NCBI GenBank assembly: GCA_017546805.1
Contig: JAFYRT010000063.1
Span: 10,289-74,288 of the forward strand
DNA from: Muribaculaceae bacterium
GTDB lineage: Bacteria > Bacteroidota > Bacteroidia > Bacteroidales > G3-4614
Direction: 5' to 3'
Length of the DNA stretch: 64,000 bases
The first letter of the stretch is position 1. Each line of letters opens with the position of its first letter. A model generated the notes under the pieces. That model searched no databases. It was not told the origin of the DNA and was given only the letters and a program-made list of their open reading frames with translations. The translations under genes and the position numbers were made by a program. This document shows positions 6,193-54,561 of this stretch, piece by piece.

Positions 6193-7804
6193 AAAAATAA
6201 GCAATCCTAACCATAAAATAACTATCCTCTTTAATAGGGTAAGCATCAAATAAATCGGAGATACTCATAAGGTTGCCACACTCACTATCGGCAACCTTTT
6301 TTACACTCCCCTCCTCCACTTTGAACGTGGCATTGTTGGGAAGTAAAACAGAATCTTTTACCGTTACACAGAAAGCAGTCTCAGGGTTCAATCTCGCATA
6401 CTCTTTAAGATATTCTTCAGCATTTATAATCCTATATTGAGGAGTATTTAATTCATCCTCTCCACGTCCAAAATCATACGCATAATCATTCAATAAAGAG
6501 ATAGGAGAAGAAGAAACTTTTGAGAACCCTTGACTCATGTACCACTCAGCAACAGACGAACTTCCGGGAATCAACATACATAGGTTTGCACTGTTACGAT
6601 AAAGACACTCGAAAATATCCTTCATCAATGCCTTACCATACCCCCTGCCCCTGTAATCCACCTTTGTTGCAACTCCATAGATATACGAGCATTTTCCACA
6701 GCCACCAACAAAATTAAACATGTCGGCAGTAGCAACAATGGCATCCCTATCGCGCAATATATAACTCTTACCCAAAGGACGTATTTTGGTTATATATTGC
6801 TCTATTGTCTCCTCATCATCGTCAAATGCCTCACGCCATAACATGGCAATTTCAACAGCCTCGGTAGAGCGTTTTATCTCCTCAACCTTCTCCTCATTTC
6901 CAAGTATCTCAATAAGACTGAATTTGGGATACAACATAATTGGCTGATACGATAATTTGGCATCACGCAAGCCTTGAATACCCAAATCCTCTTCGCGATT
7001 TATATAGCAATACTGCTCCGACAAAGCATTTGCAAAAAGATTATTTATCATTGCAAAACTTCTTTCGTAACGTACACTCCCCTTCTCTATATGGATACAA
7101 AAAGTGTTGTTGTTTATTGCCGACCCATATGTAAATGCAGCCAAGTCTCCATCAACATAAAGAGCCAAACCCTGCAATCCTAAAGCCTCAAAATTATCCA
7201 TTCCGCACTCTATTGCTCGTCTTTCGCACTCATACGCTTCCAAATCGGCATTTTCCTTGCCCTCTCGCCACTCTTCCACAAGTTTAAGTACTTCTTCCTT
7301 ATGAGCAGAAGAAAGTGGCTCTGTGGTGAAATTATAGAGTTTCTTAAAGGTGTTGACGTGATTACGTTTGGGTTGCAATTTCTTGCCGGCTAAAGTCCTT
7401 AATTGGTCGGCATTGTAGATATAATCAAACTGACTGCGTTTAGGATATAGATAATACCCGCAAAAGGGTATAGATGTGCGTAATTTCTCAGCAAAATTAG
7501 CCGAAACACCAGCCATTTTAAAAGGCTCGTTACTTGCACAAACATACTCCACAAGCTTTTTAAAAGCGGCAATGGAGTCACCCTCTCCAATAGGCTCCAT
7601 ATAAGTATGTTGTTTACCATCCACACCTCCAAACCGTATAAAGATAAAGCTTCCCCACTTCGCTATTTCGGGATTGTGCAGATGAGCCCAACAAAAGACA
7701 TTGGCAAATGCCATATCGCAACTACCCTCTCCCATTGCATAAGAATATTGTTCAAATAACTCTCTATCTTCAATTTTAACAGGTGTAAATTCCAACATAA
7801 TCAA
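6191..7804 (-). CDS. DUF2156-like (MprF C-terminal/FemX-like fold) domain fused to a GNAT acetyltransferase domain
   Basis: 537 aa. The N-terminal half resembles DUF2156 proteins (FANVFCW...KRNHVNTFKK). The C-terminal half has a GNAT acetyl-CoA motif (YRGRGYGKALM). The family assignment is from memory, not a search. Confidence 0.6.
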   Translation of the reverse strand: MIMLEFTPVKIEDRELFEQYSYAMGEGSCDMAFANVFCWAHLHNPEIAKWGSFIFIRFGGVDGKQHTYMEPIGEGDSIAAFKKLVEYVCASNEPFKMAGVSANFAEKLRTSIPFCGYYLYPKRSQFDYIYNADQLRTLAGKKLQPKRNHVNTFKKLYNFTTEPLSSAHKEEVLKLVEEWREGKENADLEAYECERRAIECGMDNFEALGLQGLALYVDGDLAAFTYGSAINNNTFCIHIEKGSVRYERSFAMINNLFANALSEQYCYINREEDLGIQGLRDAKLSYQPIMLYPKFSLIEILGNEEKVEEIKRSTEAVEIAMLWREAFDDDEETIEQYITKIRPLGKSYILRDRDAIVATADMFNFVGGCGKCSYIYGVATKVDYRGRGYGKALMKDIFECLYRNSANLCMLIPGSSSVAEWYMSQGFSKVSSSPISLLNDYAYDFGRGEDELNTPQYRIINAEEYLKEYARLNPETAFCVTVKDSVLLPNNATFKVEEGSVKKVADSECGNLMSISDLFDAYPIKEDSYFMVRIAYF

Positions 7805-7855
7805 TCTATTTTTTGTCTTGGTAAAAGTACAAAAAAAGCATAAAACTCCCCTCCT

Positions 7856-39521: not shown

Positions 39522-39592
39522 TGTCTTATGGTGTAATGGTAGCACTGCAGTTTTTGGTTCTGCCTGTCTAGGTTCGAGTCCTGGTAAGACAA
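39522..39592 (+). tRNA. tRNA-Gln (anticodon UUG)
   Basis: Hand-folded cloverleaf: acceptor TGTCTTA/TAAGACA, D-arm GTGT-AATGGTA-GCAC, anticodon arm GCAGT-TTTTGGT-TCTGC (anticodon TTG), T-arm CTAGG-TTCGAGT-CCTGG. CCA is not encoded. Confidence 0.85.
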
Positions 39593-39595
39593 CAG

Positions 39596-39623
39596 AAAGG
39601 TCGCTAATCAGCGACCTTTTTTT
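39596..39623 (+). terminator. Rho-independent terminator after tRNA-Gln
   Basis: A 9-bp stem AAAGGTCGC/GCGACCTTT with a 6-nt loop, running into a T-run (to 39623). Confidence 0.75.
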
Positions 39624-39740
39624 ATTTCAAAAACTTCTCAATAAGAAATTCATAAATCTCTTATTAGGCTAATTGGTTCTATTCGACCAATTGGTTTAAT
39701 TTGTTTTTACCCAACACTATTTCCACAAACCGTATAAAAA

Positions 39741-39772
39741 CAAAAAAGAGACGCTTTCACAAGTGTCTCTTT
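39741..39772 (-). terminator. Rho-independent terminator after the tRNA-Asn pair
   Basis: Stem AAAGAGAC.../...GTCTCTTT (39745-39772). On the minus strand it is followed by TTTTTG. Confidence 0.65.
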
Positions 39773-39776
39773 CTTG

Positions 39777-39850
39777 CTCTTCAGGTTGGACTTGAACCAA
39801 CGACCCTCTGATTAACAGTCAGATGCTCTAACCGACTGAGCTACTGAAGA
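39777..39850 (-). tRNA. tRNA-Asn (anticodon GUU), copy 1
   Basis: The minus strand reads TCTTCAGTAGCTCAGTCGGTTAGAGCATCTGACTGTTAATCAGAGGGTCGTTGGTTCAAGTCCAACCTGAAGAG. It folds as a canonical cloverleaf with anticodon loop CTGTTAA. Confidence 0.92.
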
Positions 39851-39879
39851 ATAATATTTTATAGGTAGTTATGAAAAGG

Positions 39880-39953
39880 CTCTTCAGGTTGGACTTGAAC
39901 CAACGACCCTCTGATTAACAGTCAGATGCTCTAACCGACTGAGCTACTGAAGA
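39880..39953 (-). tRNA. tRNA-Asn (anticodon GUU), copy 2
   Basis: A 74-nt sequence identical to copy 1, separated from it by a 29-nt spacer. Confidence 0.92.
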
Positions 39954-45898: not shown

Positions 45899-47149
45899 AT
45901 GTTACAACGTAAAGATTTTGAAATAATGGCTCCCGTAGGCTCATACGAATCGCTTACAGCAGCAATACAGGGAGGAGCCGATTCGGTATATTTCGGAGTG
46001 GAGGGATTGAACATGCGTTCACGTTCGTCAAACAACTTTACCCTTGACGACCTTCGCAACATAGCCGAAATCTGTAACCAAAACAACATAAAAACGTATC
46101 TAACCGTAAACACCGTAATATACGACGGCGACCTTGAGTTGATGCGAAAAATCATCGACACGGTAAAAGAGTCGGGCGTAAGTGCAATCATAGCATCAGA
46201 TGTGGCAGCAATGAGCTATGCCAATTCAATAGGCGTAGAGGTACACCTATCAACACAATTGAACATATCAAATGCCGAAGCATTGAAATTCTACGCACAA
46301 TTTGCCGACGTAGTGGTATTGGCTCGCGAGTTGAACCTCGACCAAGTATCAGGCATATACAAAAGAATACAAGAGGAGAACATCACAGGCCCCAAAGGAG
46401 AACAAGTGCGTATCGAGATGTTTGCACACGGAGCATTATGTATGGCAGTATCGGGCAAATGCTACTTGAGTTTGCACGAAATGAACTACTCAGCCAACCG
46501 AGGATCATGCCTTCAAATATGCCGTAGAGGATACACCGTAAAAGACAAAGAGACAAACATAGAGTTGGATATAGAGAACCAATATATAATGTCGCCCAAA
46601 GATCTTAAGACAATACACTTCATGAACAAAATGATTGATTCGGGAGTAAGAGTATTTAAGATTGAAGGACGCGCCCGTAGTGCCGAGTATGTTCGCACAG
46701 TGGTGGAGTGCTATCGCGAAGCAGTTGAGAGCTACATTGAAGGTACATTCAACGAGGAGAAAATAGCAGATTGGGATACACGTTTAGCAACCGTATTCAA
46801 CCGCGGATTCTGGAACGGATACTACCTTGGACAACGCTTGGGCGAGTGGTCATCGAGCTATGGTTCAGAGGCAACCGAACGCAAAGAGTATATAGGAAAA
46901 GGAACAAAATACTTCTCAAACATAGGCGTTGCCGAGTTCTTAATGGAGAGCGGAGAATTTAACGAAGGCGACAAACTATTGATAACAGGACCCACAACAG
47001 GAGCAATAACCATCGAGGCAAAAGATATGCGAGTAAACTTTGCACCCGCAACAAAAGTTGTAAAAGGAGACCTATTCTCAATAGCCGTAGGCACAAAAAT
47101 ACGCCCATCGGACAAACTATTCAAAATAGTACCCAACGTAAAAGAGTAA
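45899..47149 (+). CDS. Peptidase U32 family protein (RlhA/TrhP-type)
   Basis: 416 aa. It has the U32 signature E-x-F-x-H-G-A-x-C (EMFAHGALCMAVSGKCYLS). Confidence 0.88.
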   Translation: MLQRKDFEIMAPVGSYESLTAAIQGGADSVYFGVEGLNMRSRSSNNFTLDDLRNIAEICNQNNIKTYLTVNTVIYDGDLELMRKIIDTVKESGVSAIIASDVAAMSYANSIGVEVHLSTQLNISNAEALKFYAQFADVVVLARELNLDQVSGIYKRIQEENITGPKGEQVRIEMFAHGALCMAVSGKCYLSLHEMNYSANRGSCLQICRRGYTVKDKETNIELDIENQYIMSPKDLKTIHFMNKMIDSGVRVFKIEGRARSAEYVRTVVECYREAVESYIEGTFNEEKIADWDTRLATVFNRGFWNGYYLGQRLGEWSSSYGSEATERKEYIGKGTKYFSNIGVAEFLMESGEFNEGDKLLITGPTTGAITIEAKDMRVNFAPATKVVKGDLFSIAVGTKIRPSDKLFKIVPNVKE

Positions 47150-47304: not shown

Positions 47305-48444
47305 CTACTTATTCATATTCCTCATTATCCTATCAGTAACATCATTAATCCAACGCATATTGTAGTTATCCATAATATACATCGAAATCTGTTTGTAAAT
47401 ATCGCTGCGTTCAATATTTTTAACCTCAACAGGCAAATTTTTTACGTCGGTTTTAAGAGTATCCAACAATTTGTCTGTTATAGAAACAACCAAAGCAACA
47501 TCATTAAAAGAGAGAACAAGATTCTCATAGTCATTAGCCTTTATAATAGAATCTGCTTTTAATTTCAGAGCGCTAACAATTGAAGAAACAATTTTATCCT
47601 GCTCCTCTCTCTTAATAACACTCTGCTCAACAACCTCAACCTTGGGTAAAATATTTTGGCGACTGCTCTCAATATTGACAAAGTACGAAATCATAAAAGC
47701 AAAGGCAATAAAGATTGTGATGAAAAAATATTTCGGAACTCTCCAACACAAATTAAGCTTTTGTTTAACCGCATCAATAGTCCTATATCTATCTTGTTTG
47801 TTACAACAACATCCGCTAATCACAAAACGAGCCAAGACCCCTGTTTTCAAATCTTTAAGCAAGCAACCCACCGAAAAAATATCGTCGGGACCTTCAGGAG
47901 CCACATACCCTTCCGAGCCCACAGCCTGTTTAAGCACAGCGTAACCATTGCTATCGCTCAAGCCAAAATCAATAAGTTTAATATACGCACCACCCTGTAC
48001 CACCATAATGTTTTGCGGTTTAAGATCGCGATGCTGAATTTGAAGCGAATGAAGATATTTAAGCGTATCAATAAGCATGTTTGCAATATTTCTGCGTTCG
48101 CTGATTGAGTGTTTCTGTTCAAGCCATTCGCTGAGAGTAACACCCTCAATCCACTCCATAACAATAGCCTTTCCAATACCCTTAACATCCTCGATGGAAT
48201 ATACCTGAACAATGTACGGATGTTGTAAACTTGTCATCAAATCAAACTCTTTCATCAAGAGCGATTGGTACATAACATCCCCTTGCAGCTCCTTTTTCAA
48301 AGCCTTCAAAAGCCACCATTTGCCATTGCGCTTTGCTCTATAAAGAGAGTTAAAACCGGAGTTGCTAATCTCCAAGACCTGAGAAAACTCTTGTTGAGAC
48401 AAAAAATTATCTTTAGGTTTTATAAAAAATGATGTATCAGACAT
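47305..48444 (-). CDS. Membrane-anchored Hanks-type Ser/Thr protein kinase
   Basis: 379 aa. It has the catalytic loop HRDLKPQN, DFG (IDFGLS), APE-like YVAPEG, and the lysine context WWLLKALK. A TM helix (FFITIFIAFAFMISYFV) precedes a roughly 115-aa C-terminal domain. The glycine-rich loop is degenerate (ISNSGFNSLY). Confidence 0.85.
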   Translation of the reverse strand: MSDTSFFIKPKDNFLSQQEFSQVLEISNSGFNSLYRAKRNGKWWLLKALKKELQGDVMYQSLLMKEFDLMTSLQHPYIVQVYSIEDVKGIGKAIVMEWIEGVTLSEWLEQKHSISERRNIANMLIDTLKYLHSLQIQHRDLKPQNIMVVQGGAYIKLIDFGLSDSNGYAVLKQAVGSEGYVAPEGPDDIFSVGCLLKDLKTGVLARFVISGCCCNKQDRYRTIDAVKQKLNLCWRVPKYFFITIFIAFAFMISYFVNIESSRQNILPKVEVVEQSVIKREEQDKIVSSIVSALKLKADSIIKANDYENLVLSFNDVALVVSITDKLLDTLKTDVKNLPVEVKNIERSDIYKQISMYIMDNYNMRWINDVTDRIMRNMNK

Positions 48445-48475
48445 CGTAAAATCAAATTATTTTAACCAAACAAAA

Positions 48476-49036
48476 CTATCCAATTAAAACCCTGATGCAA
48501 ACACCATCTTTTTCACCTGCAACATAAGATAAAGGCTCCGAACCCTCATGAACAAGATTACTCAAATATAATGGTTCGTTTTGTATAAACAAGTTACAAG
48601 TAAACGAATCGCCTACACTCAATTTAGAGTTCACACTCTCGGTTATAACAAAAGCAGAGTCCCCAACATATTTAGCAACAATAGTTCGGTCGGGACGCCA
48701 CGAAATTTGCAAACAATCACCTTTAATAAGTCTATTAACATCAATAGAATCGGTCGAAACAATACGACTTTGCACTTTTTTCAACTCCTCACGTCTTTGA
48801 CAAAATACCTCAAAGTTTCTAAAGCCCACAAACTTTGCAAGCACATCAAGCGTATGAGGTCTGGTTTCGACCTTCTCATTTTGCAGATAACCCCAAAACC
48901 TCTTTAATGTAGTAGGAGATAGTCGCTCTTTGGTTTTATCCCAAATAACATTGCTTAACTCCTCAAAATTACCTGCAGTAAGCACCTTAAAGCCTGCTGT
49001 ATATTCAACCGTTTGTCTTAAAATATCGTGTAGCAT
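48476..49036 (-). CDS. Hypothetical protein co-transcribed with the kinase (possible HTH-like N-terminus, beta-rich C-terminus)
   Basis: 186 aa, 31 nt upstream of the kinase on the same strand. Its codon usage matches neighbouring minus-strand genes. The N-terminus (SPTTLKRFWGY...HTLDVLAKFVGF) looks helix-turn-helix-like. I recognise no family. Confidence 0.5.
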   Translation of the reverse strand: MLHDILRQTVEYTAGFKVLTAGNFEELSNVIWDKTKERLSPTTLKRFWGYLQNEKVETRPHTLDVLAKFVGFRNFEVFCQRREELKKVQSRIVSTDSIDVNRLIKGDCLQISWRPDRTIVAKYVGDSAFVITESVNSKLSVGDSFTCNLFIQNEPLYLSNLVHEGSEPLSYVAGEKDGVCIRVLIG

Positions 49037-49100
49037 CTTTTTTAATTAGAAATGTTTTTTAACTAAGAACTAACAATCCCAAGCTAAAGCAATACAATGA

Positions 49101-49108
49101 CAAATTTA
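49101..49108 (-). promoter_or_regulatory. Candidate -7 promoter motif for the 48476/kinase operon
   Basis: The minus strand reads TAAATTTG, about 65 nt upstream of the 49036 start. Confidence 0.35.
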
Positions 49109-49160
49109 TAACAAATTTTTTAACAAGTTATATTCAACTATTAAAAGGACAAAAAAGGAC

Positions 49161-49191
49161 TTTGTTTTCTTTTTACATCACCCTACTTTTG
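49161..49191 (+). promoter_or_regulatory. Full Bacteroidota-type promoter facing the 49625/50315 operon
   Basis: TTTG (49161-49164), then a 19-nt spacer, then TACTTTTG (49184-49191). It lies upstream of the left inverted repeat. Confidence 0.55.
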
Positions 49192-49220
49192 CCTTTGCAA
49201 GAGAGAGAGATTTTTAAAAT

Positions 49221-49484
49221 ATTGGTTCACACTATTAAGGGGAAAGTTATATATACATTTTTATATAACAAAATACTTTATTTATAAAAAATATTTATAA
49301 ATTTGTGGTGTTGCACAATTGCAACAGACATATTTAGGAAACATTAGACAAAGTCTGTTAAGGTAAACCTGGAAAATTTATCAAAGCAAGTAAAGACTGA
49401 GTTTAAACATGTTCCCTTGATACTGTGTATAAAACCTGCTTACGATGGTTAGGCAGGATTATATACATTCAAGTGTGAACCAAT
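49221..49484. repeat. Perfect 13-bp inverted repeat pair bracketing a 238-bp segment
   Basis: ATTGGTTCACACT at 49221-49233 and its exact reverse complement AGTGTGAACCAAT at 49472-49484. The enclosed segment contains TAAATTTG (49298-49305, + orientation). Confidence 0.85.
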
Positions 49485-49624
49485 TTATACTCTTTACTTG
49501 CGGGCAGTTCCAGGGCCTACCAACGGAGTATTAAATTAGGTTTGCACTTTTTTTGTGCCCTTCTCCGAAAAACTCCTTTGCTGTATCCTTAAAAATGGGA
49601 AATAACCACTAAAACAATATAATT

Positions 49625-50278
49625 ATGAAATGTTTAATACCTATAATTTTAAAGCATTATCCAAAAGACTTTTTAAAATACTATTTTGAAGATTTAAAAA
49701 AGGCATATAATGCTAAGGATACAACTTCTACTCTATTATTACTTACAGAAATAACAAAAGGAGATCACCAAAGGAGAATGCCTATTCATATTGTTAAAAT
49801 TGTAATATACAAATTATTAGAAGAGGCAATTTTTAATGGAATATTTAAAAACTTCGAAGAACTATATGATAGAGTAAAAGATATATTATCCACTATCCCT
49901 TTTGCACAAGGACCACTAACCACATACGATATAGCATTAAAGATTGGAGGCTTATTAAATATATCTCCTCATGACTATTTATATCTTGCAGATACAACAA
50001 GTAAAGTTTTTTCGCTTGTGTATTCAAATACTAATCCAACTACTAAAAACTTCAAAGGAAAAGTGGATATATCTTATGCACAAAAGATATTCGGTAATAC
50101 ATTAAATAGTGCAGATATAGAGATTATATTATGCATATTTAAAGACTGTTTTAAAAGACGTTTAGACGGAGAATGTATTTCAGAAGAAGAAATAAAAGAT
50201 ATCATAAAGAAGAAATATCCTAAAGAGATAGATTGGGATAATGTAAGGACGAAAGCAAAAAGATATGGAGTTTTATAA
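49625..50278 (+). CDS. Hypothetical protein (217 aa), first gene of the adhesin operon
   Basis: The ORF is open with no recognisable family and no signal peptide. It ends 36 nt before the 50315 start on the same strand. Confidence 0.5.
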   Translation: MKCLIPIILKHYPKDFLKYYFEDLKKAYNAKDTTSTLLLLTEITKGDHQRRMPIHIVKIVIYKLLEEAIFNGIFKNFEELYDRVKDILSTIPFAQGPLTTYDIALKIGGLLNISPHDYLYLADTTSKVFSLVYSNTNPTTKNFKGKVDISYAQKIFGNTLNSADIEIILCIFKDCFKRRLDGECISEEEIKDIIKKKYPKEIDWDNVRTKAKRYGVL

Positions 50279-50314
50279 AGAAAATGATAAATAATTCTAA
50301 AAAAATAAGAGATC

Positions 50315-53300
50315 ATGAAAACTAAATTAATTACATTGCTCGTGGCAATACTTTCTGTGGGTATATTATATGCCCAAAGTGATATGGATGGTATAAAACT
50401 CAATGATATACCAACATACACCATAAAAACATCTTCATCAACAGGCGGAACTGCTACAACTTCATTAAACGAGGTTGTAACAGGAGGTAGTGTAACCCTT
50501 AATGCATATGCAAACAGCGGATACGGTTTTAAAAATTGGACTGTTAATGGCACAGTTGTAAGTGCATACAATCCCTATACCGTTACACCAACCGGTAATA
50601 CAACATACAAAGCCAATTTTGTACCAATAAAATCTGGTTTATATATGGGAATAATGGGCTTTAATAAAGAGTTGAATAATAAAAATATAGGAATACTCAC
50701 ATCCGATACAAAATCATCATTCACCAACTTTGTAAATAATTTAACTACTCAAAAAGGAACAATATTGTATTATGCAGTTGAAAATGCCATAGATTCATTG
50801 GCAACAGCAACTCTTCCGGGAGATTTAGAAAGTGTTATAATGATAACATTTACCGACGGATTAGACCAAGGTTCATTTATGATGAATAACAAATATGAAT
50901 CAATCGATGAGTATTTGACTGTATTAAATAATAAGATAAAAAACACCAAAGTACAAAGATTACCTATAAACGCATACTCTATAGGGTTGAAAGGTTCAGA
51001 TGTAGTGGATGACGTTCAATTTCAGAACAACCTTACAAATTTGGCAAGTTCTCCTGAAAATGCTATAGAGGTAAGTAGCATGGATGAGGTAAACACTAAA
51101 TTACAAGAGATAGCAACAGCAATATACCAGGAAAAAAATGGCGAAACAATAAAACTTACCATTCCGGGTCAATCGCCAAATACAAAAATACGTTTTACTT
51201 TTGATAATGTAACAGATGCCTCAAAATCACAATTCTATATAGAGGGAACATTCTCTAATGACTATTCATTGAAAAATGTGGTTTATTCAGGAATGACCTC
51301 AAAAAGTGGACTAATTGTAGCAGGAGAGACAGACGGATTTGAAGTAACATACACATTTAAGGATATTGAAGTAACTAATGTATTATATGACAGACTTCCC
51401 ACATCTAATCTAAAACAGTGGAGCTATGTGACAAGTTCATCTAAATGGCAAAAGAATTCGGAGTTTTCTCCCGAAGAATCATCAATCATTGAAATAAGAC
51501 CAACAGTAATAATGTTGGTGTTAGACTGTAGTAGTTCATTAGGCAGTCAATTTACAACAATGAAGACTTACGCTAATAACTTTATTAAAAAGATAGAAGA
51601 GGGACCTAAATACTACACTGTATCAGCATCAGCAAATACAGGTGGAACTGCTGTTGCTTCATCTGAAAACGTAAGAGAGGGAGGAAATGTAAGACTGACT
51701 GCCATACCTAATGATGGATATAAATTTAAAAACTGGACAAAAAACGGTAGCGTGGTAAGTACTTCTAACCCCGACACAGTCACCATAACTGCAAACAGCA
51801 CATTTGTAGCTAATTTCGAAATAGCTCCAACCTATACAGTAAAAGTTTCTGCAAATACAGGTGGAACTGCTGTTGCTTCATCTGAAAATATGTGGGAAGG
51901 AGGCAGTGTAATCCTAACTGCAACACCAAAAAGTGGATATAAATTTAAAAACTGGACAAAAAACGGTAGCGTGGTAAGTACTTCTAACCCTTACACCGCT
52001 ACAATAACTGAATACAGCATATTTGTAGCTAATTTCGAAATAATTCCAACCTATACAGTATCAGTTTCTGCAAATACAGGTGGAACTGCTGTTGCTTCAT
52101 CAAACAGTGTAGAGTATGGTGGTAGTGTAACTCTAACAGCTACTCCAAACAGTGGATACAAATTTAAAAATTGGACAAAAAACGGTAGCGTGGTAAGTAC
52201 TTCTAACCCATATACTGCAACTATATCGGCAAACAGTTCTTTTATAGCGAACTTTGAGAAAATTACCTATACAGTATCAGTTTCTGCAAATACAGGTGGA
52301 ACTGCAACAGCATCTGCAAGCAGTGTTGAAAAGGAAGGAGCCGGGGTAACTCTAACTGCAACACCTGATAGTGGATATAAATTCAAAAACTGGACATTGA
52401 ACGGTAATGTGGTAAGTACTAATAAGCGTTACTATGCAACTATAACTGCAAACAGCCACTTTGTTGCCAATTTCGAAAAACTTACCTATGAAGTAATAGT
52501 TTATACAAATACAGGTGGAACTGCAACAGCATCTGCAAACATTGTAGAGTATGGTGGTAGTGTAACCCTAACTGCAACACCTGAACCTGATAGTAAATAT
52601 GTATTCATAAATTGGAAGACATCATGGTTCGGTGATGACTTTGTAAGTACTTCTAACCCTTACACTGCTACCATAACTGAAAACAGCACATTTATAGCTA
52701 ATTTTCAAATACCTACCTATACAGTATCAGTTTCTGCAAATACAGGTGGAACTGCAACAGCATCTGCAAGCAGTGTTGAAAATAAAGACAATGTAATCCT
52801 AACTGCAATACCTGATAGTGGATATAAATTTAAAAATTGGACATTGAACGGTAATGTGGTAAGTACTAATTGGTGTTACTATGCAACTATAACTGCAAAC
52901 AGCAACTTTGTTGCCAATTTTTATAAATCAACAGATATAGACGTACACGAATATGTAGACCTTGGCTTATCAGTGAAATGGGCAGATTGTAATGTAGGAG
53001 CAACCTCTCCTGTAGGGTACGGTGATTATTTCTCATGGGGAGAGACTTCTCCAAAAGAAATATATAATTGGGACTCATCATATAAATGGGATGATTCTAA
53101 TTATTATTCAAACGAAAATAATAAAACAATACTTGATTTAGAAGACGATGCAGCGTATGTAAATTGGGGTGGTAATTGGCGTATGCCAACAATAGAAGAA
53201 TTTCAAGAACTAATTGATAATTGTACTTGGACAGAGAGTACCCATAGCGGAGTAAACGGAGTAATAGTAACCAGTAAAATAAATGGGAACTCTATCTTTC

Positions 53301-53710
53301 TTCCTAAAGCAGGTTATAGAAGTGGTCCTGATTATGTTAATAAAGGTTCAAGATGTTGCTATTGGTCTTCTTCTCGTTATGTTGAAAATAATTATGATGG
53401 TCACATTTTGTGGATTTCGATAAAAAGCCCTAGTATGTTTTCTATGCTTCGTTATCAAGGATTAACTATCCGCGCAGTTTATGATATAAATAATACAGCT
53501 ATTGAGGAGATTGATACAAATAGTGCATTTGTATATGCTGGCAATGGTGTTATATATATAAATAATCACATAGGAAATGTCAAGGTAATTGGCGTTTCAG
53601 GTCAAGTAGTTAAAGATGTTTATATAGACGGAAACGACACACTTGAAGTTACTCCGGGTCTTTACATCGTAAAAACAGGAAACAAAGTAACAAAAATTGT
53701 GGTTAAGTGA
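50315..53710 (+). CDS. T9SS-secreted mosaic surface protein: InlB-type B-repeat, vWA-like region, 6 further B-repeats, DUF1566/Fib_succ_major lectin-like domain, T9SS C-terminal sorting domain
   Basis: It has a signal peptide (LLVAILSVGILYAQ) and 7 repeats carrying the GYKFKNWT motif. vWA-like strands are present (VIMITFTDGLDQGS, INAYSIGLKG) plus a separate DCSSS MIDAS-like motif. The lectin-like region reads GNWRMPTIEEFQEL...GYRSG...CYWSSS...GLTIRAVYD. The C-terminus GLYIVKTGNKVTKIVVK is typical of a type A T9SS CTD. Confidence 0.85.
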   Translation: MKTKLITLLVAILSVGILYAQSDMDGIKLNDIPTYTIKTSSSTGGTATTSLNEVVTGGSVTLNAYANSGYGFKNWTVNGTVVSAYNPYTVTPTGNTTYKANFVPIKSGLYMGIMGFNKELNNKNIGILTSDTKSSFTNFVNNLTTQKGTILYYAVENAIDSLATATLPGDLESVIMITFTDGLDQGSFMMNNKYESIDEYLTVLNNKIKNTKVQRLPINAYSIGLKGSDVVDDVQFQNNLTNLASSPENAIEVSSMDEVNTKLQEIATAIYQEKNGETIKLTIPGQSPNTKIRFTFDNVTDASKSQFYIEGTFSNDYSLKNVVYSGMTSKSGLIVAGETDGFEVTYTFKDIEVTNVLYDRLPTSNLKQWSYVTSSSKWQKNSEFSPEESSIIEIRPTVIMLVLDCSSSLGSQFTTMKTYANNFIKKIEEGPKYYTVSASANTGGTAVASSENVREGGNVRLTAIPNDGYKFKNWTKNGSVVSTSNPDTVTITANSTFVANFEIAPTYTVKVSANTGGTAVASSENMWEGGSVILTATPKSGYKFKNWTKNGSVVSTSNPYTATITEYSIFVANFEIIPTYTVSVSANTGGTAVASSNSVEYGGSVTLTATPNSGYKFKNWTKNGSVVSTSNPYTATISANSSFIANFEKITYTVSVSANTGGTATASASSVEKEGAGVTLTATPDSGYKFKNWTLNGNVVSTNKRYYATITANSHFVANFEKLTYEVIVYTNTGGTATASANIVEYGGSVTLTATPEPDSKYVFINWKTSWFGDDFVSTSNPYTATITENSTFIANFQIPTYTVSVSANTGGTATASASSVENKDNVILTAIPDSGYKFKNWTLNGNVVSTNWCYYATITANSNFVANFYKSTDIDVHEYVDLGLSVKWADCNVGATSPVGYGDYFSWGETSPKEIYNWDSSYKWDDSNYYSNENNKTILDLEDDAAYVNWGGNWRMPTIEEFQELIDNCTWTESTHSGVNGVIVTSKINGNSIFLPKAGYRSGPDYVNKGSRCCYWSSSRYVENNYDGHILWISIKSPSMFSMLRYQGLTIRAVYDINNTAIEEIDTNSAFVYAGNGVIYINNHIGNVKVIGVSGQVVKDVYIDGNDTLEVTPGLYIVKTGNKVTKIVVK
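51611..52929 (+). repeat. Six tandem coding repeats of about 220 nt (InlB-type B-repeat units) with long near-identical DNA stretches
   Basis: Strings such as GTTTCTGCAAATACAGGTGGAACTGC and AAAAACTGGACAAAAAACGGTAGCGTGGTAAGTACTTCTAACCC recur at about 225-nt spacing. Confidence 0.9.
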
Positions 53711-53821
53711 TAATAAACAAGTTAGATGACTTTGTTATCAAAGTTTTAGTTAAATAATAAACACAATACTTTTTAACTAAATCATAAAATAGGACAGATT
53801 AATAATAATTCTTGTTGGTAA

Positions 53822-53866
53822 AGGGGCTGTGTCAAAATGTAAAATTTGGCACAGTCTCTTTTTTTA
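53822..53866 (+). terminator. Rho-independent terminator of the adhesin gene (hairpin-family member)
   Basis: AGGGGCTGTGTCAAAAT (53822-53838), a GTAA loop, and AATTTGGCACAGTCTCT (53843-53859) form a 17-position stem (1 mismatch, 3 G-U pairs), followed by TTTTTTT. Confidence 0.75.
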
Positions 53867-53933
53867 GGAGAATGTAAATTAAACTGTGTCAGCAAGGAAA
53901 AATAAATATTAACTTTGCTAACACAGTTTTATT

Positions 53934-54050
53934 ATGAGCGAATTTGATTTTGAAAGCATCAAGGTTAAAGCCCTTGAACAATTAAAAGCTGGCAAATCAT
54001 TATTGGGTAAAGATGAAAAGTTATATTATCTTTCTACTGTAATTTTTTAA
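53934..54050 (+). pseudogene. IS256-family (mutator-type) transposase, N-terminal stub only
   Basis: It translates to MSEFDFESIKVKALEQLKAGKSLLGKD then EKLYYLSTVIF*. The first 27 aa match the conserved N-terminus of Bacteroidota IS256-family transposases as I recall it (..ALEQL+SGK.LLGKDG). Similarity ends where the sequence runs into the 3' end of the convergent 54034 gene. Confidence 0.6.
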
Positions 54051-54561
54051 AGAACTCCCATATAACAATACCTCCGGCAACAGATACATTCAAAGAGTGT
54101 TTAGTTCCAAACTGAGGTATTTCAACTGCAAAATCGCAGATGTTCACTACCTCTTGTTGAACTCCTTTTACCTCATTTCCCAATATAAGCGCATAACGAC
54201 TGTTTTTATCAAGTTCAACTTTATCGAGCATTATACTGTTTTGCACCTGTTCAACTGCAAACACTTTATAGCCTTCGTTTTTAAGTTTTTCAACAACCTG
54301 TTTTGTATCTTCATAATATTCCCAATCCATACTATCCTCGGCACCAAGTGCAGTTTTGTGTATCTCAGCATTGGGAGGTGTGGCTGTTACTCCACATAAA
54401 TATATTTTTTCAAGTTTAAAAGCATCAGAACTACGGAAAACCGAACCAACATTATTTAAACTTCTTATATTATCAAGTACCACAACCAAAGGAGTTTTAT
54501 CAAGTTGTTTAAACTCCTCTTTACTAACTCGTTCTAACTCTACTACTGATAATTTTTTCAT
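54034..54561 (-). CDS. TrmH/SpoU-family RNA 2'-O-methyltransferase
   Basis: 175 aa. It has NVGSVFRSSDAF, LILGNEVKGV and IPQFGTKHSLNVSVAGGIV (SPOUT motifs). Confidence 0.85.
   Translation of the reverse strand: MKKLSVVELERVSKEEFKQLDKTPLVVVLDNIRSLNNVGSVFRSSDAFKLEKIYLCGVTATPPNAEIHKTALGAEDSMDWEYYEDTKQVVEKLKNEGYKVFAVEQVQNSIMLDKVELDKNSRYALILGNEVKGVQQEVVNICDFAVEIPQFGTKHSLNVSVAGGIVIWEFFKKLQ

Follow-up and report, generated by a model that had tools for sequence, protein, structure and literature searches.

What does a kinase gene control when it sits back to back with an adhesin operon? The question is raised by a locus in a 64,000-nucleotide (nt) stretch of contig JAFYRT010000063.1 from a Muribaculaceae bacterium (hereafter the window), in which the genes for a membrane kinase and for a 186-amino-acid (aa) protein, p186, diverge from the genes for a 217-aa protein, p217, and a large secreted repeat protein, the adhesin. 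According to the original prediction, the kinase and p186 form a dedicated regulator of the adhesin operon and act through a repeat-bearing switch region that lies between the two gene pairs. Comparison of the locus with its relatives leads us to a different answer: we read it as one copy of a conserved Bacteroidales signaling and expression cassette, composed of the kinase, p186, a short DNA box and a leader RNA, which drives variable cargo, and we assign this reading a probability of about 0.5. The predicted four-gene layout itself was borne out by the open reading frame (ORF) calls, in coordinates as well as in sizes. The features on which the argument depends are as follows.

47305-48444, minus strand: kinase gene, 379 aa; membrane Hanks-type Ser/Thr kinase.
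48476-49036, minus strand: p186 gene, 186 aa; two-domain protein of a large unnamed Bacteroidales family.
49037-49624: intergenic gap of 588 bp between the divergent genes p186 and p217.
49101-49108, minus strand: presumed -7 box of the p186 promoter, TAAATTTG, Bacteroidetes-type, placed by eye.
49144-49161, minus strand: invariant box AGTCCTTTTTTGTCCTTT, a direct repeat of two GTCCTTT copies one helical turn apart, between the divergent promoters.
49161-49191, plus strand: presumed RNA promoter, placed by eye, with a -33 element TTTG (49161-49164), a 19-nt spacer and a -7 element TACTTTTG (49184-49191).
49199-49568, plus strand: structured RNA, either the leader of p217 and the adhesin or a separate noncoding RNA; 330-360 nt in its family.
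49221-49233, 49472-49484 and 49540-49548, plus strand: 5′ arm, middle arm and 3′ arm of the RNA, with a U7 tract at 49548-49554.
49625-50278, plus strand: p217 gene, 217 aa; all-helical protein (AlphaFold) of a small family.
50315-53710, plus strand: adhesin gene, 1131 aa; secreted repeat protein.
53820-53865, plus strand: intrinsic terminator, a 17-bp stem followed by U7, at the end of the plus-strand unit.

The association between the kinase and p186 extends well beyond the window. Of the 80 best species loci of the p186 family, as surveyed by tblastn, 68 have a kinase gene within ~1.5 kb of the p186 homolog, with all four relative orientations represented, and a kinase also lies near the p186 homolog in every metagenome context inspected. 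At two loci (L094 and L095) the N-domain of p186 (residues 2-80, 42% identity, E = 7e-18) precedes a Pkinase+LRR_5 protein in an in-frame fusion; the L094 fusion protein (644 aa; L094:5832-7766, minus strand) is encoded divergently from a p217 homolog, P0122, with no RNA between the two genes. As a Rosetta stone, this fusion links the N-domain of p186 to the kinase. The claim that kinase and p186 belong together as a pair is thus upheld by conserved adjacency and by a natural fusion, and we consider a functional link between them very likely. The synteny test that accompanied the prediction finds the four genes together within the same species only. At a set of Bacteroidaceae-type loci whose kinases have LRR_5 tails (L057, L066, L072, L074, L080, L083, L084 and L087), the gene divergent from p186 often encodes a secreted protein of very large size (430-1854 aa), either LRR/BspA-like or with InlB repeats; the kinase sensor domain and the neighboring surface protein share a repeat type there, and the divergent genes are separated by a gap of just 50-350 nt, without RNA or box. 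Literature searches returned no description of either the kinase/p186 pair or the RNA.

The identification of the first partner as a membrane Hanks kinase is secure, with a Pkinase (PF00069) score of 109.6 bits over residues 35-202 against a cut-off of 31.7. The catalytic motifs are legible in the translation (LLKALKK with the beta3 Lys, HRDLKPQN, IDFGLS for DFG and YVAPEG for APE), and the glycine-rich loop is degenerate (SNSGFNS). A compact catalytic domain (~residues 1-235) is followed by one hydrophobic segment (~239-258) and by a helical, lineage-specific C-terminal tail of ~120 aa, for which a profile search returned no PASTA or other Pfam family. The closest NCBIfam model, the PASTA kinase model NF033483, reaches 99 bits (cut-off 450) and aligns with the kinase domain alone. 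Matches to the PADLOC models PD-T4-6, mad6 and Stk2 (E = 1.8e-29 to 5e-17, with PD-T4-6 the best) are those of a generic kinase domain, as expected of any Hanks kinase. The catalytic domain is conserved at 28-61% identity across the 80 loci, with a range of 45-61% to the kinases beside p186 homologs, and the tail of the window kinase was recovered only in its nearest relative (L015, 26% identity). The homologs bear other tails, LRR_5 among them; the tails vary and p186 is constant. In one contig of the same species (L005:3908-5043) the kinase is called as two ORFs of 160 and 233 aa, which reflects either a frameshift, possibly inactivating, or an assembly error.

The second partner belongs to an abundant family. 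Homologs of p186 form 179 clusters in a set of 5.8 billion proteins and 4019 representatives at E<=1e-3 in a set of 1.84 billion, nearly all of the latter being stand-alone proteins of ~190 aa. With one genome per species, GTDB contains more than 572 loci, all of them in Bacteroidales (Prevotella, Bacteroidaceae, Muribaculaceae, Paludibacteraceae and Hallella). The protein has no match in Pfam, NCBIfam, PADLOC or PHROGs, and a profile search against PDB sequences was empty. Its AlphaFold model (predicted local distance difference test score, pLDDT, 89.5) combines an N-domain of 5-6 helices (residues 1-87) with a small nine-strand beta domain (97-184), for which weak TOBE-like hints were obtained among 52 members; FHA domain profiles, as would be expected of an EmbR-like partner, matched none of these 52. 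The N-terminus had been described as helix-turn-helix (HTH)-like, and this holds insofar as a helical domain is present in the confident model, but not at the level of an HTH profile match. By eye, the motif LSPTTLKRFWGY...TRPHTLDVLAKFVGF is like helices 3-4 of XRE-type HTH domains. When the family was compared by hhalign with the 434 repressor, the expected helix was aligned without significance, and a comparison with RodZ was not significant either. We regard p186 as a candidate DNA-binding partner of the kinase, with DNA binding as a presumed activity.

The divergent gap contains a structured RNA. When the sequences that precede p186 genes in the window and in Prevotella loci were aligned, a block of ~330 nt emerged with a mean DNA identity of 81.0%, compared with 72.7% for the adjoining p186 coding sequence; the block is the more conserved of the two in 59 of 66 species pairs. 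A MAFFT alignment of 26 sequences (A7), in the orientation of the plus strand of the window and not fitted to structure, gave 59 pairs with RNAalifold, 20 of them with compensatory double changes. When a helix between the 5′ arm and the middle arm is added, the resulting 63-pair structure has 94.7% of alignment cells paired and double changes in 22 pairs (93 cells), a result that none of 500 column shuffles equaled; sliding the partners by 1-3 columns left just 7-14 double-change cells. Compensatory changes therefore exceed those of the controls, as is characteristic of a structured RNA. The added helix crosses the outer helices and is therefore a pseudoknot, so that the overall architecture comprises 13 helices and a pseudoknot. 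The strand on which this structure is read makes a difference, with 94.7% of cells paired in the sense direction versus 89.5% in the antisense, the mismatches being G.U on the sense strand. These wobbles are valid on the plus strand, and the RNA therefore runs away from p186, towards p217. The 'repeats' of the predicted switch region, two perfect inverted arms of 13 bp (49221-49233 and 49472-49484), turned out to be helices of this RNA. As a control region the 588-bp gap retains part of its predicted character, being conserved and carrying both the box and a structured RNA that points at the p217 and adhesin genes, but it is not a repeat array.

Searches with the whole RNA, made by nhmmer profile, match the window at 49214-49561 (E = 3.6e-35), and a model built without the window sequence matches 49363-49556 on the plus strand (E = 2e-7) as its sole match in the 64 kb. 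The window RNA has a minimum free energy of -104 kcal/mol (z = -6.0 versus shuffles), and nine of the consensus pairs that it retains are kept by double change. In a scan of the window and five Prevotella loci at gathering scores, Rfam 15 identified tRNAs and DUF805b elsewhere and nothing on the element; a permissive scan of the element gave only chance-level matches to eukaryotic and archaeal snoRNA/sRNA families. The DUF805b motif (RF02914, 40.5 bits; L007:6810-6844, minus strand) follows closely on the first cargo gene of one Prevotella locus. A '97-aa ORF family' upstream of p186 was considered and rejected as the translated RNA element, the ORF being absent from the window and the indels non-triplet. 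We hold with high confidence that the element exists as a conserved structured RNA.

An unbiased scan with a conserved 21-mer of the RNA recovered at least 120 metagenome contigs, 117 of which have an nhmmer match to the RNA; viral contigs gave no match to the 21-mer. Fifty-six contigs have 700 nt or more of sequence ahead of the RNA. A p186 homolog is present in 38 of these, 21 of which also carry the kinase, and three more of the 56 end inside a kinase gene. The association between RNA and p186 is thus strong, though not exclusive, with p186 accompanying the RNA at 38 of 56 loci. The RNA runs away from p186 in Prevotellaceae as in the lineage of the window, and the RNA-containing cassette is conserved across rumen and gut Prevotellaceae, usually but not always with the kinase as part of it. 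Several copies or fragments of the RNA occur within a few kb of one another, or 7 kb from p186 (L060:512-758 and 7516-7811; three matches in L047; L052/L053), which may point to a small regulon, or to leaders that were duplicated along with their cargo.

The box accompanies p186. Its 18-mer, AGTCCTTTYYTGTCCTTT, occurs exactly in 41 of 99 loci with constant orientation relative to p186, and it is unique in the window, where 0.04 occurrences are expected. In 60 copies the distance from the box to the RNA downstream of it is 39-43 nt. Where insertions part the RNA from p186 (L030, L033, L047 and L048) the box is duplicated and each of the two keeps a copy, and the closest relatives of p186 (L014, L220-L222), which show no detectable RNA, have kept it. 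The simplest reading of this pattern would make the box a candidate p186 operator. The equivalent of the RNA -7 element, TAATTTTG, is nearly invariant in the Prevotella alignment.

Downstream of the RNA the picture changes from one conserved unit to many unrelated genes. The next co-directional ORF begins a median of 34 nt after the RNA (<=80 nt at 122 of 145 RNA loci), and across the 145 loci the ORFs behind the RNA fall into 53 BLAST families. The two largest, with 21 loci each, are secreted LRR_5/dockerin proteins and TerB/zinc-ribbon membrane proteins; the p217 family is the third, being the first gene at 11 loci. Other cargo includes a LEM-3-type GIY-YIG nuclease, CD225-like membrane proteins and a protein with a p186-like N-domain. 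The last is the first ORF after the RNA at L039 and L043, where the N-domain is followed by a transmembrane (TM) segment and a modified-DNA-binding SRA domain (PF18491, E = 6e-15), an odd topology for a DNA-binding protein. One species locus of the 80 (L042) has a syntenic p217 homolog, and there the order is that of the window (p217 homolog, RNA, box, p186, kinase), with a secreted Sel1 protein after p217. At L096 a p217 homolog stands behind an orphan RNA copy and ahead of LRR_5 and InlB-repeat/dockerin proteins.

Described earlier as an orphan, p217 is in fact a member of a small family of 21 clusters. It has no match in Pfam, NCBIfam, PADLOC or PHROGs, its hidden Markov model (HMM) found no further members among the p186 loci, and the 230-aa cargo protein of L007, considered as a possible relative, is unrelated. 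The AlphaFold model (pLDDT 89, predicted template modeling score 0.85) is all-helical, and its best Foldseek matches in the PDB, to archaeal AGOG glycosylases, are not significant (E = 0.55-7.5); no viral fold matched. One family member, P0288, marginally passes the cut-off of PF18724 (ADDT; 26.4 versus 26.2 bits), and p217 and its three closest relatives show no match to that profile at E<=10. Profile searches with p217 and P0288 against PDB sequences found nothing, and the Foldseek and HMM searches of the p217 family did not recover gp46 of PaMx11 (PDB 8Z2M), a solved PF18724 member in which residues E243 and C247 have been mutated (PMC11472151). The all-helical fold is common to p217, the amino-acid:DNA transferase/aGPT-Pplase proteins and the helix-hairpin-helix glycosylases, and an invariant E-x-x-x-C in p217 has the same spacing as E243/C247 of gp46 (PMC11472151); unlike the transferases, p217 has no 5-hydroxymethyldeoxyuridine (5-hmdU) pathway genes among its neighbors. 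We treat the link to DNA enzymes as a lead only.

The adhesin consists of a signal peptide, an InlB B-repeat, a vWA-like region, six more B-repeats, an Lcl_C/FISUMP-like domain (a weak match) and a C-terminal domain, in that order. Its seven InlB B-repeats are recognized by Flg_new_2 (PF18998, 284 bits) and include a tandem array with a unit of 219 nt (73 aa) in 5.9 copies (window 51613-52920). As to its designation as cargo of the type IX secretion system (T9SS), the last 99 residues match TIGR04183 (19.4 bits, E = 7.9e-4) below the cut-off of 23; DUF6383 reaches 19.9 bits against a cut-off of 23.7. We consider a T9SS C-terminal domain probable on these profile scores. Repeat number varies among strains of the species, the L006 protein having 1198 aa versus 1131 in the window, and in L002 the adhesin DNA is present (88% amino-acid identity) with fragmented gene calls. 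Many same-species contigs break in the repeat region. No adhesin ortholog is syntenic at any of the 80 other species loci, which yielded three weak matches to the repeats only, and neither the adhesin nor p186 matches a PADLOC or PHROG family. In L220, the closest relative that has the SpoU gene as its boundary, other genes take the place of p217, the adhesin and the insertion-sequence stub. The adhesin is best read as local, exchangeable cargo and not as a dedicated partner.

A mechanism that would join these components can be outlined. The kinase would sense an extracytoplasmic cue via its variable C-terminal domain and act on p186, which it would either phosphorylate or bind directly at the N-domain. 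In turn p186 would bind the box and control both its own promoter and the divergent promoter of the RNA. The RNA would act in cis in an attenuator-like manner: in one state the 5′ arm and the middle arm would pair while an upstream strand holds the 3′ arm, and in the alternative state the middle arm and the 3′ arm would form a hairpin followed by a U-tract. The switch between them would decide whether transcription or translation continues into the cargo, which in the window is p217 and the adhesin, up to the terminator at 53820-53865. In the alignment, the 5′ arm and the middle arm are paired in 94% of cells, with three compensated pairs, and in 234 of 234 cells the middle arm (49472-49480) is paired with the 3′ arm (49540-49548), behind which stands U7 in the window and UCUUUGUG in Prevotella. 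The hairpin of middle and 3′ arms is incompatible both with the helix of 5′ and middle arms and with the one in which the 3′ arm is otherwise held. This alternative pairing, a possible switch, resembles the two states of an attenuator.

Several observations weigh against the cassette reading as a whole. The regulatory steps of phosphorylation, binding and control of expression are ones that we infer from sequence, and the promoters and the transcription start were placed by eye. Kinase genes are missing from 12 of the 80 p186 loci and p186 from 18 of the 56 RNA loci, the rest being mostly 5′-shortened 'orphan' copies; the closest relatives of p186 have the box and no RNA that could be detected; and the box is absent from 44 full-length copies of the RNA, mostly ones in which a kinase instead of p186 faces the RNA. 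The window RNA is itself diverged, being 51% identical to that of L007 and retaining 37 of the 63 consensus pairs. For p186, Foldseek against the PDB found no significant relative, with weak Sm/SH3-like matches only, and none of the 52 members gave a match to an HTH profile. The N-domain of p186 is also found in fusions with TM and SRA proteins, which suggests that this domain may be a protein-interaction rather than a DNA-binding module. Finally, the hairpin of middle and 3′ arms would enclose ~60 nt and the U-tract outside the window is just UCUUUGUG, so that its role as a terminator is uncertain.

Other explanations of the locus have to be set against the same evidence. A kinase and p186 dedicated to the adhesin operon would fit the divergent layout and the common 588-bp region, both of which are real, as well as the large secreted repeat proteins that face p186-kinase pairs at several Bacteroidaceae loci and that rank among the commonest cargo classes behind the RNA. 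This explanation is nevertheless improbable, since it is contradicted by the adhesin synteny (0 of 80 loci), by cargo of 53 families in 145 loci, by the different genes that L220 has between p186 and SpoU, and by the nature of the supposed repeats, which are RNA helices with compensatory changes. The RNA might instead be an independent trans-acting or catalytic noncoding RNA, with unrelated genes accumulating behind it at a recombination-prone spot. Its size and ornate form (13 helices and a pseudoknot), the lack of a common function among the downstream genes, the extra copies away from p186 and the absence of a match among Rfam cis-regulatory families are all compatible with this. We think it unlikely given the tight spacing of the ORFs, as most loci lack a canonical terminator between RNA and ORF and no separate -7 box was seen by eye before p217. 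That kinase, p186, p217 and adhesin are accidental neighbors without any functional link, in a variable segment made by insertion sequences, would account for the IS256 remnant at the segment end, the fall in GC from ~0.42 to ~0.30 across the locus and the differences in cargo between relatives; the orientation-independent adjacency of p186 and kinase, the fusion protein and the conservation of box and RNA go beyond chance and make it extremely unlikely.

Two further explanations give the locus a specific purpose. The cassette could head a variable anti-phage or stress island, with the kinase and p186 sensing infection or envelope stress and the cargo as effectors. The LEM-3-type nuclease, the SRA protein and the TerB/zinc-ribbon and CD225-like membrane proteins among the cargo would suit such a role, as would the faint link of p217 to DNA base-flipping enzymes, the PDDEXK, KilA-N and ResIII/Eco57I genes adjoining some loci and the match of the kinase to PD-T4-6 (E = 1.8e-29) as its best in PADLOC. 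But the PADLOC matches span the generic kinase domain only, with p186, p217 and the adhesin negative in PADLOC and PHROG; viral contigs lack the RNA 21-mer, the sensor tail of the kinase is extracytoplasmic, the cargo counts secreted LRR/dockerin proteins among its commonest classes and the position beside U32 and SpoU is conserved, all of which render a defensive role unlikely. Invertible promoters (invertons) are common in Bacteroidales, and the inverted repeats at 49221-49233 and 49472-49484 could be taken as recombinase sites around a 238-bp invertible promoter that phase-varies the adhesin. The repeat is perfect over 13 bp with its arms 238 nt apart, the arms covary between the window and Prevotella, and a same-species contig (L004) ends 19 nt inside the segment (window 49252), where coincidence or assembly ambiguity is possible. 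Against inversion, the segment has an identical orientation in five of five same-species contigs, its imperfect pairs are G.U wobbles valid on one strand only, its interior itself consists of covarying helices, and no recombinase is found among the called genes within ~10 kb. We rejected this idea on the strand-specific wobbles and the constant orientation, and its residual probability is very small. The cassette driving variable cargo remains the reading that we prefer.

The ends of the variable segment are marked by two further features.

53934-54050, plus strand: N-terminal remnant of an IS256-family transposase, 38 codons, abutting the SpoU gene.
54034-54561, minus strand: SpoU/TrmH RNA methyltransferase (PF00588, 127 bits), the far boundary of the variable cargo segment.

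The strong terminator of the original prediction is confirmed, with a 17-bp stem at 53820-53861 and a U-run (-22.7 kcal/mol, z = -6.9), and so is its IS256 stub, in whose 38-codon ORF residues 3-27 share 88% identity with annotated IS256 transposases (E = 7e-6). With 38 codons left it is a remnant and not a complete insertion sequence. The candidate replication origin nearby was not sustained: 25 DnaA-box-like 9-mers were counted where 18.7 are expected, and none is a perfect box. We rejected an origin near the locus, as DnaA boxes are not enriched and the GC-skew profile is confounded by gene orientation. The locus is flanked by a U32 peptidase gene (window 45899-47149) and the SpoU methylase gene. 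In Hallella (L061/L078/L069) a p186 homolog adjoins both U32 peptidase and SpoU, without kinase, RNA or adhesin, and the chromosomal position is therefore old; in L220, SpoU bounds a different cargo set. Because of the Hallella neighbors and the differing cargo of L220, the segment from p186 to SpoU acts as a hot spot of variable content at a position that is old in the chromosome. GC falls from ~0.42-0.44 at 43-47 kb to ~0.29-0.34 at 49-58 kb, and the low values extend over the housekeeping genes SpoU, NadA and PurN-like; the low GC of the cargo alone is therefore no sign of recent transfer. A tRNA-Gln gene and two tandem tRNA-Asn genes (window 39522-39953) are unrelated to the finding.

Bacteroidales are dominant bacteria of the gut and rumen. 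To our knowledge, Hanks-kinase signaling in this order has hardly been explored, and neither a partner nor a target is defined. The locus offers a concrete family of kinase partners, p186, with thousands of members and no name, together with a candidate operator, and the RNA, whose helices are backed by covariation and which has an apparent two-state switch, is a candidate for a new Rfam family. The cassette may explain how variable surface and accessory functions are switched on and off by outside cues. A bolder version, which we regard as doubtful, has the RNA as the core of a gene-expression 'socket' in Prevotellaceae and their relatives: an ornate leader that senses a ligand or a protein, connected with a Hanks kinase and with a DNA-binding protein of a new family, behind which unrelated genes are exchanged (surface LRR/dockerin adhesins, nucleases, SRA proteins and TerB-like membrane proteins). 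If this were true, the socket would represent either an integron-like platform for cargo that lacks an integrase, or a class of kinase-controlled riboregulator without a described counterpart. A sensor kinase with its regulator and a leader RNA are known kinds of element, and the components here are new families; among the protein and system families compared, only the kinase fold and the InlB repeats fall within a known family. There is a real chance that the RNA, or the cassette, is without precedent.

Comparison with known systems places each component. With the PASTA kinases PknB, PrkC and Stk1 the window kinase shares its catalytic fold and its topology, that of a kinase domain, a single TM segment and an outside domain; theirs consists of PASTA repeats, whereas the window kinase has a helical tail of ~120 aa and its relatives have LRR_5. 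In Actinobacteria, PknH-EmbR and AfsK-AfsR are pairs in which a Hanks kinase is encoded beside a DNA-binding regulator that it phosphorylates. The likeness to the present pair lies in a membrane Ser/Thr kinase with an extracytoplasmic sensor and in an adjoining putative DNA-binding protein with a second domain, the two being conserved as neighbors in our 80-locus survey. In contrast to EmbR, p186 is without winged-helix, BTA or FHA domains and has no detectable Pfam or PDB relative, and the window module belongs to Bacteroidales, adds a structured RNA and variable cargo, and has phosphorylation as a presumed step only. The RNA recalls attenuators and riboswitch platforms (1:2 versus 2:3 pairing) in the alternative pairing of its middle arm, its U-tract and the ORF just downstream; unlike them it is much larger (~330-360 nt), matches no Rfam family, precedes genes without a common function and has no known ligand or leader peptide. 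With the ornate RNAs ROOL and GOLLD it has in common its discovery by comparison in rumen-type Bacteroidales and metagenomes, a multi-helix structure with a pseudoknot and an undefined biochemical role. It is shorter than ROOL, which averages 581 nt (PMC5737381), and, having no Rfam match, is homologous to neither. Unlike these RNAs, it is tied to the p186 gene and to the box. BrxR/CapW-type regulators head variable defense islands, and they and integron-like platforms resemble the cassette in that one conserved unit stands ahead of many unrelated genes. The unit in the window differs in being without a WYL domain, an integrase or attC-like sites; it has a kinase and an RNA, and much of its cargo consists of surface proteins.

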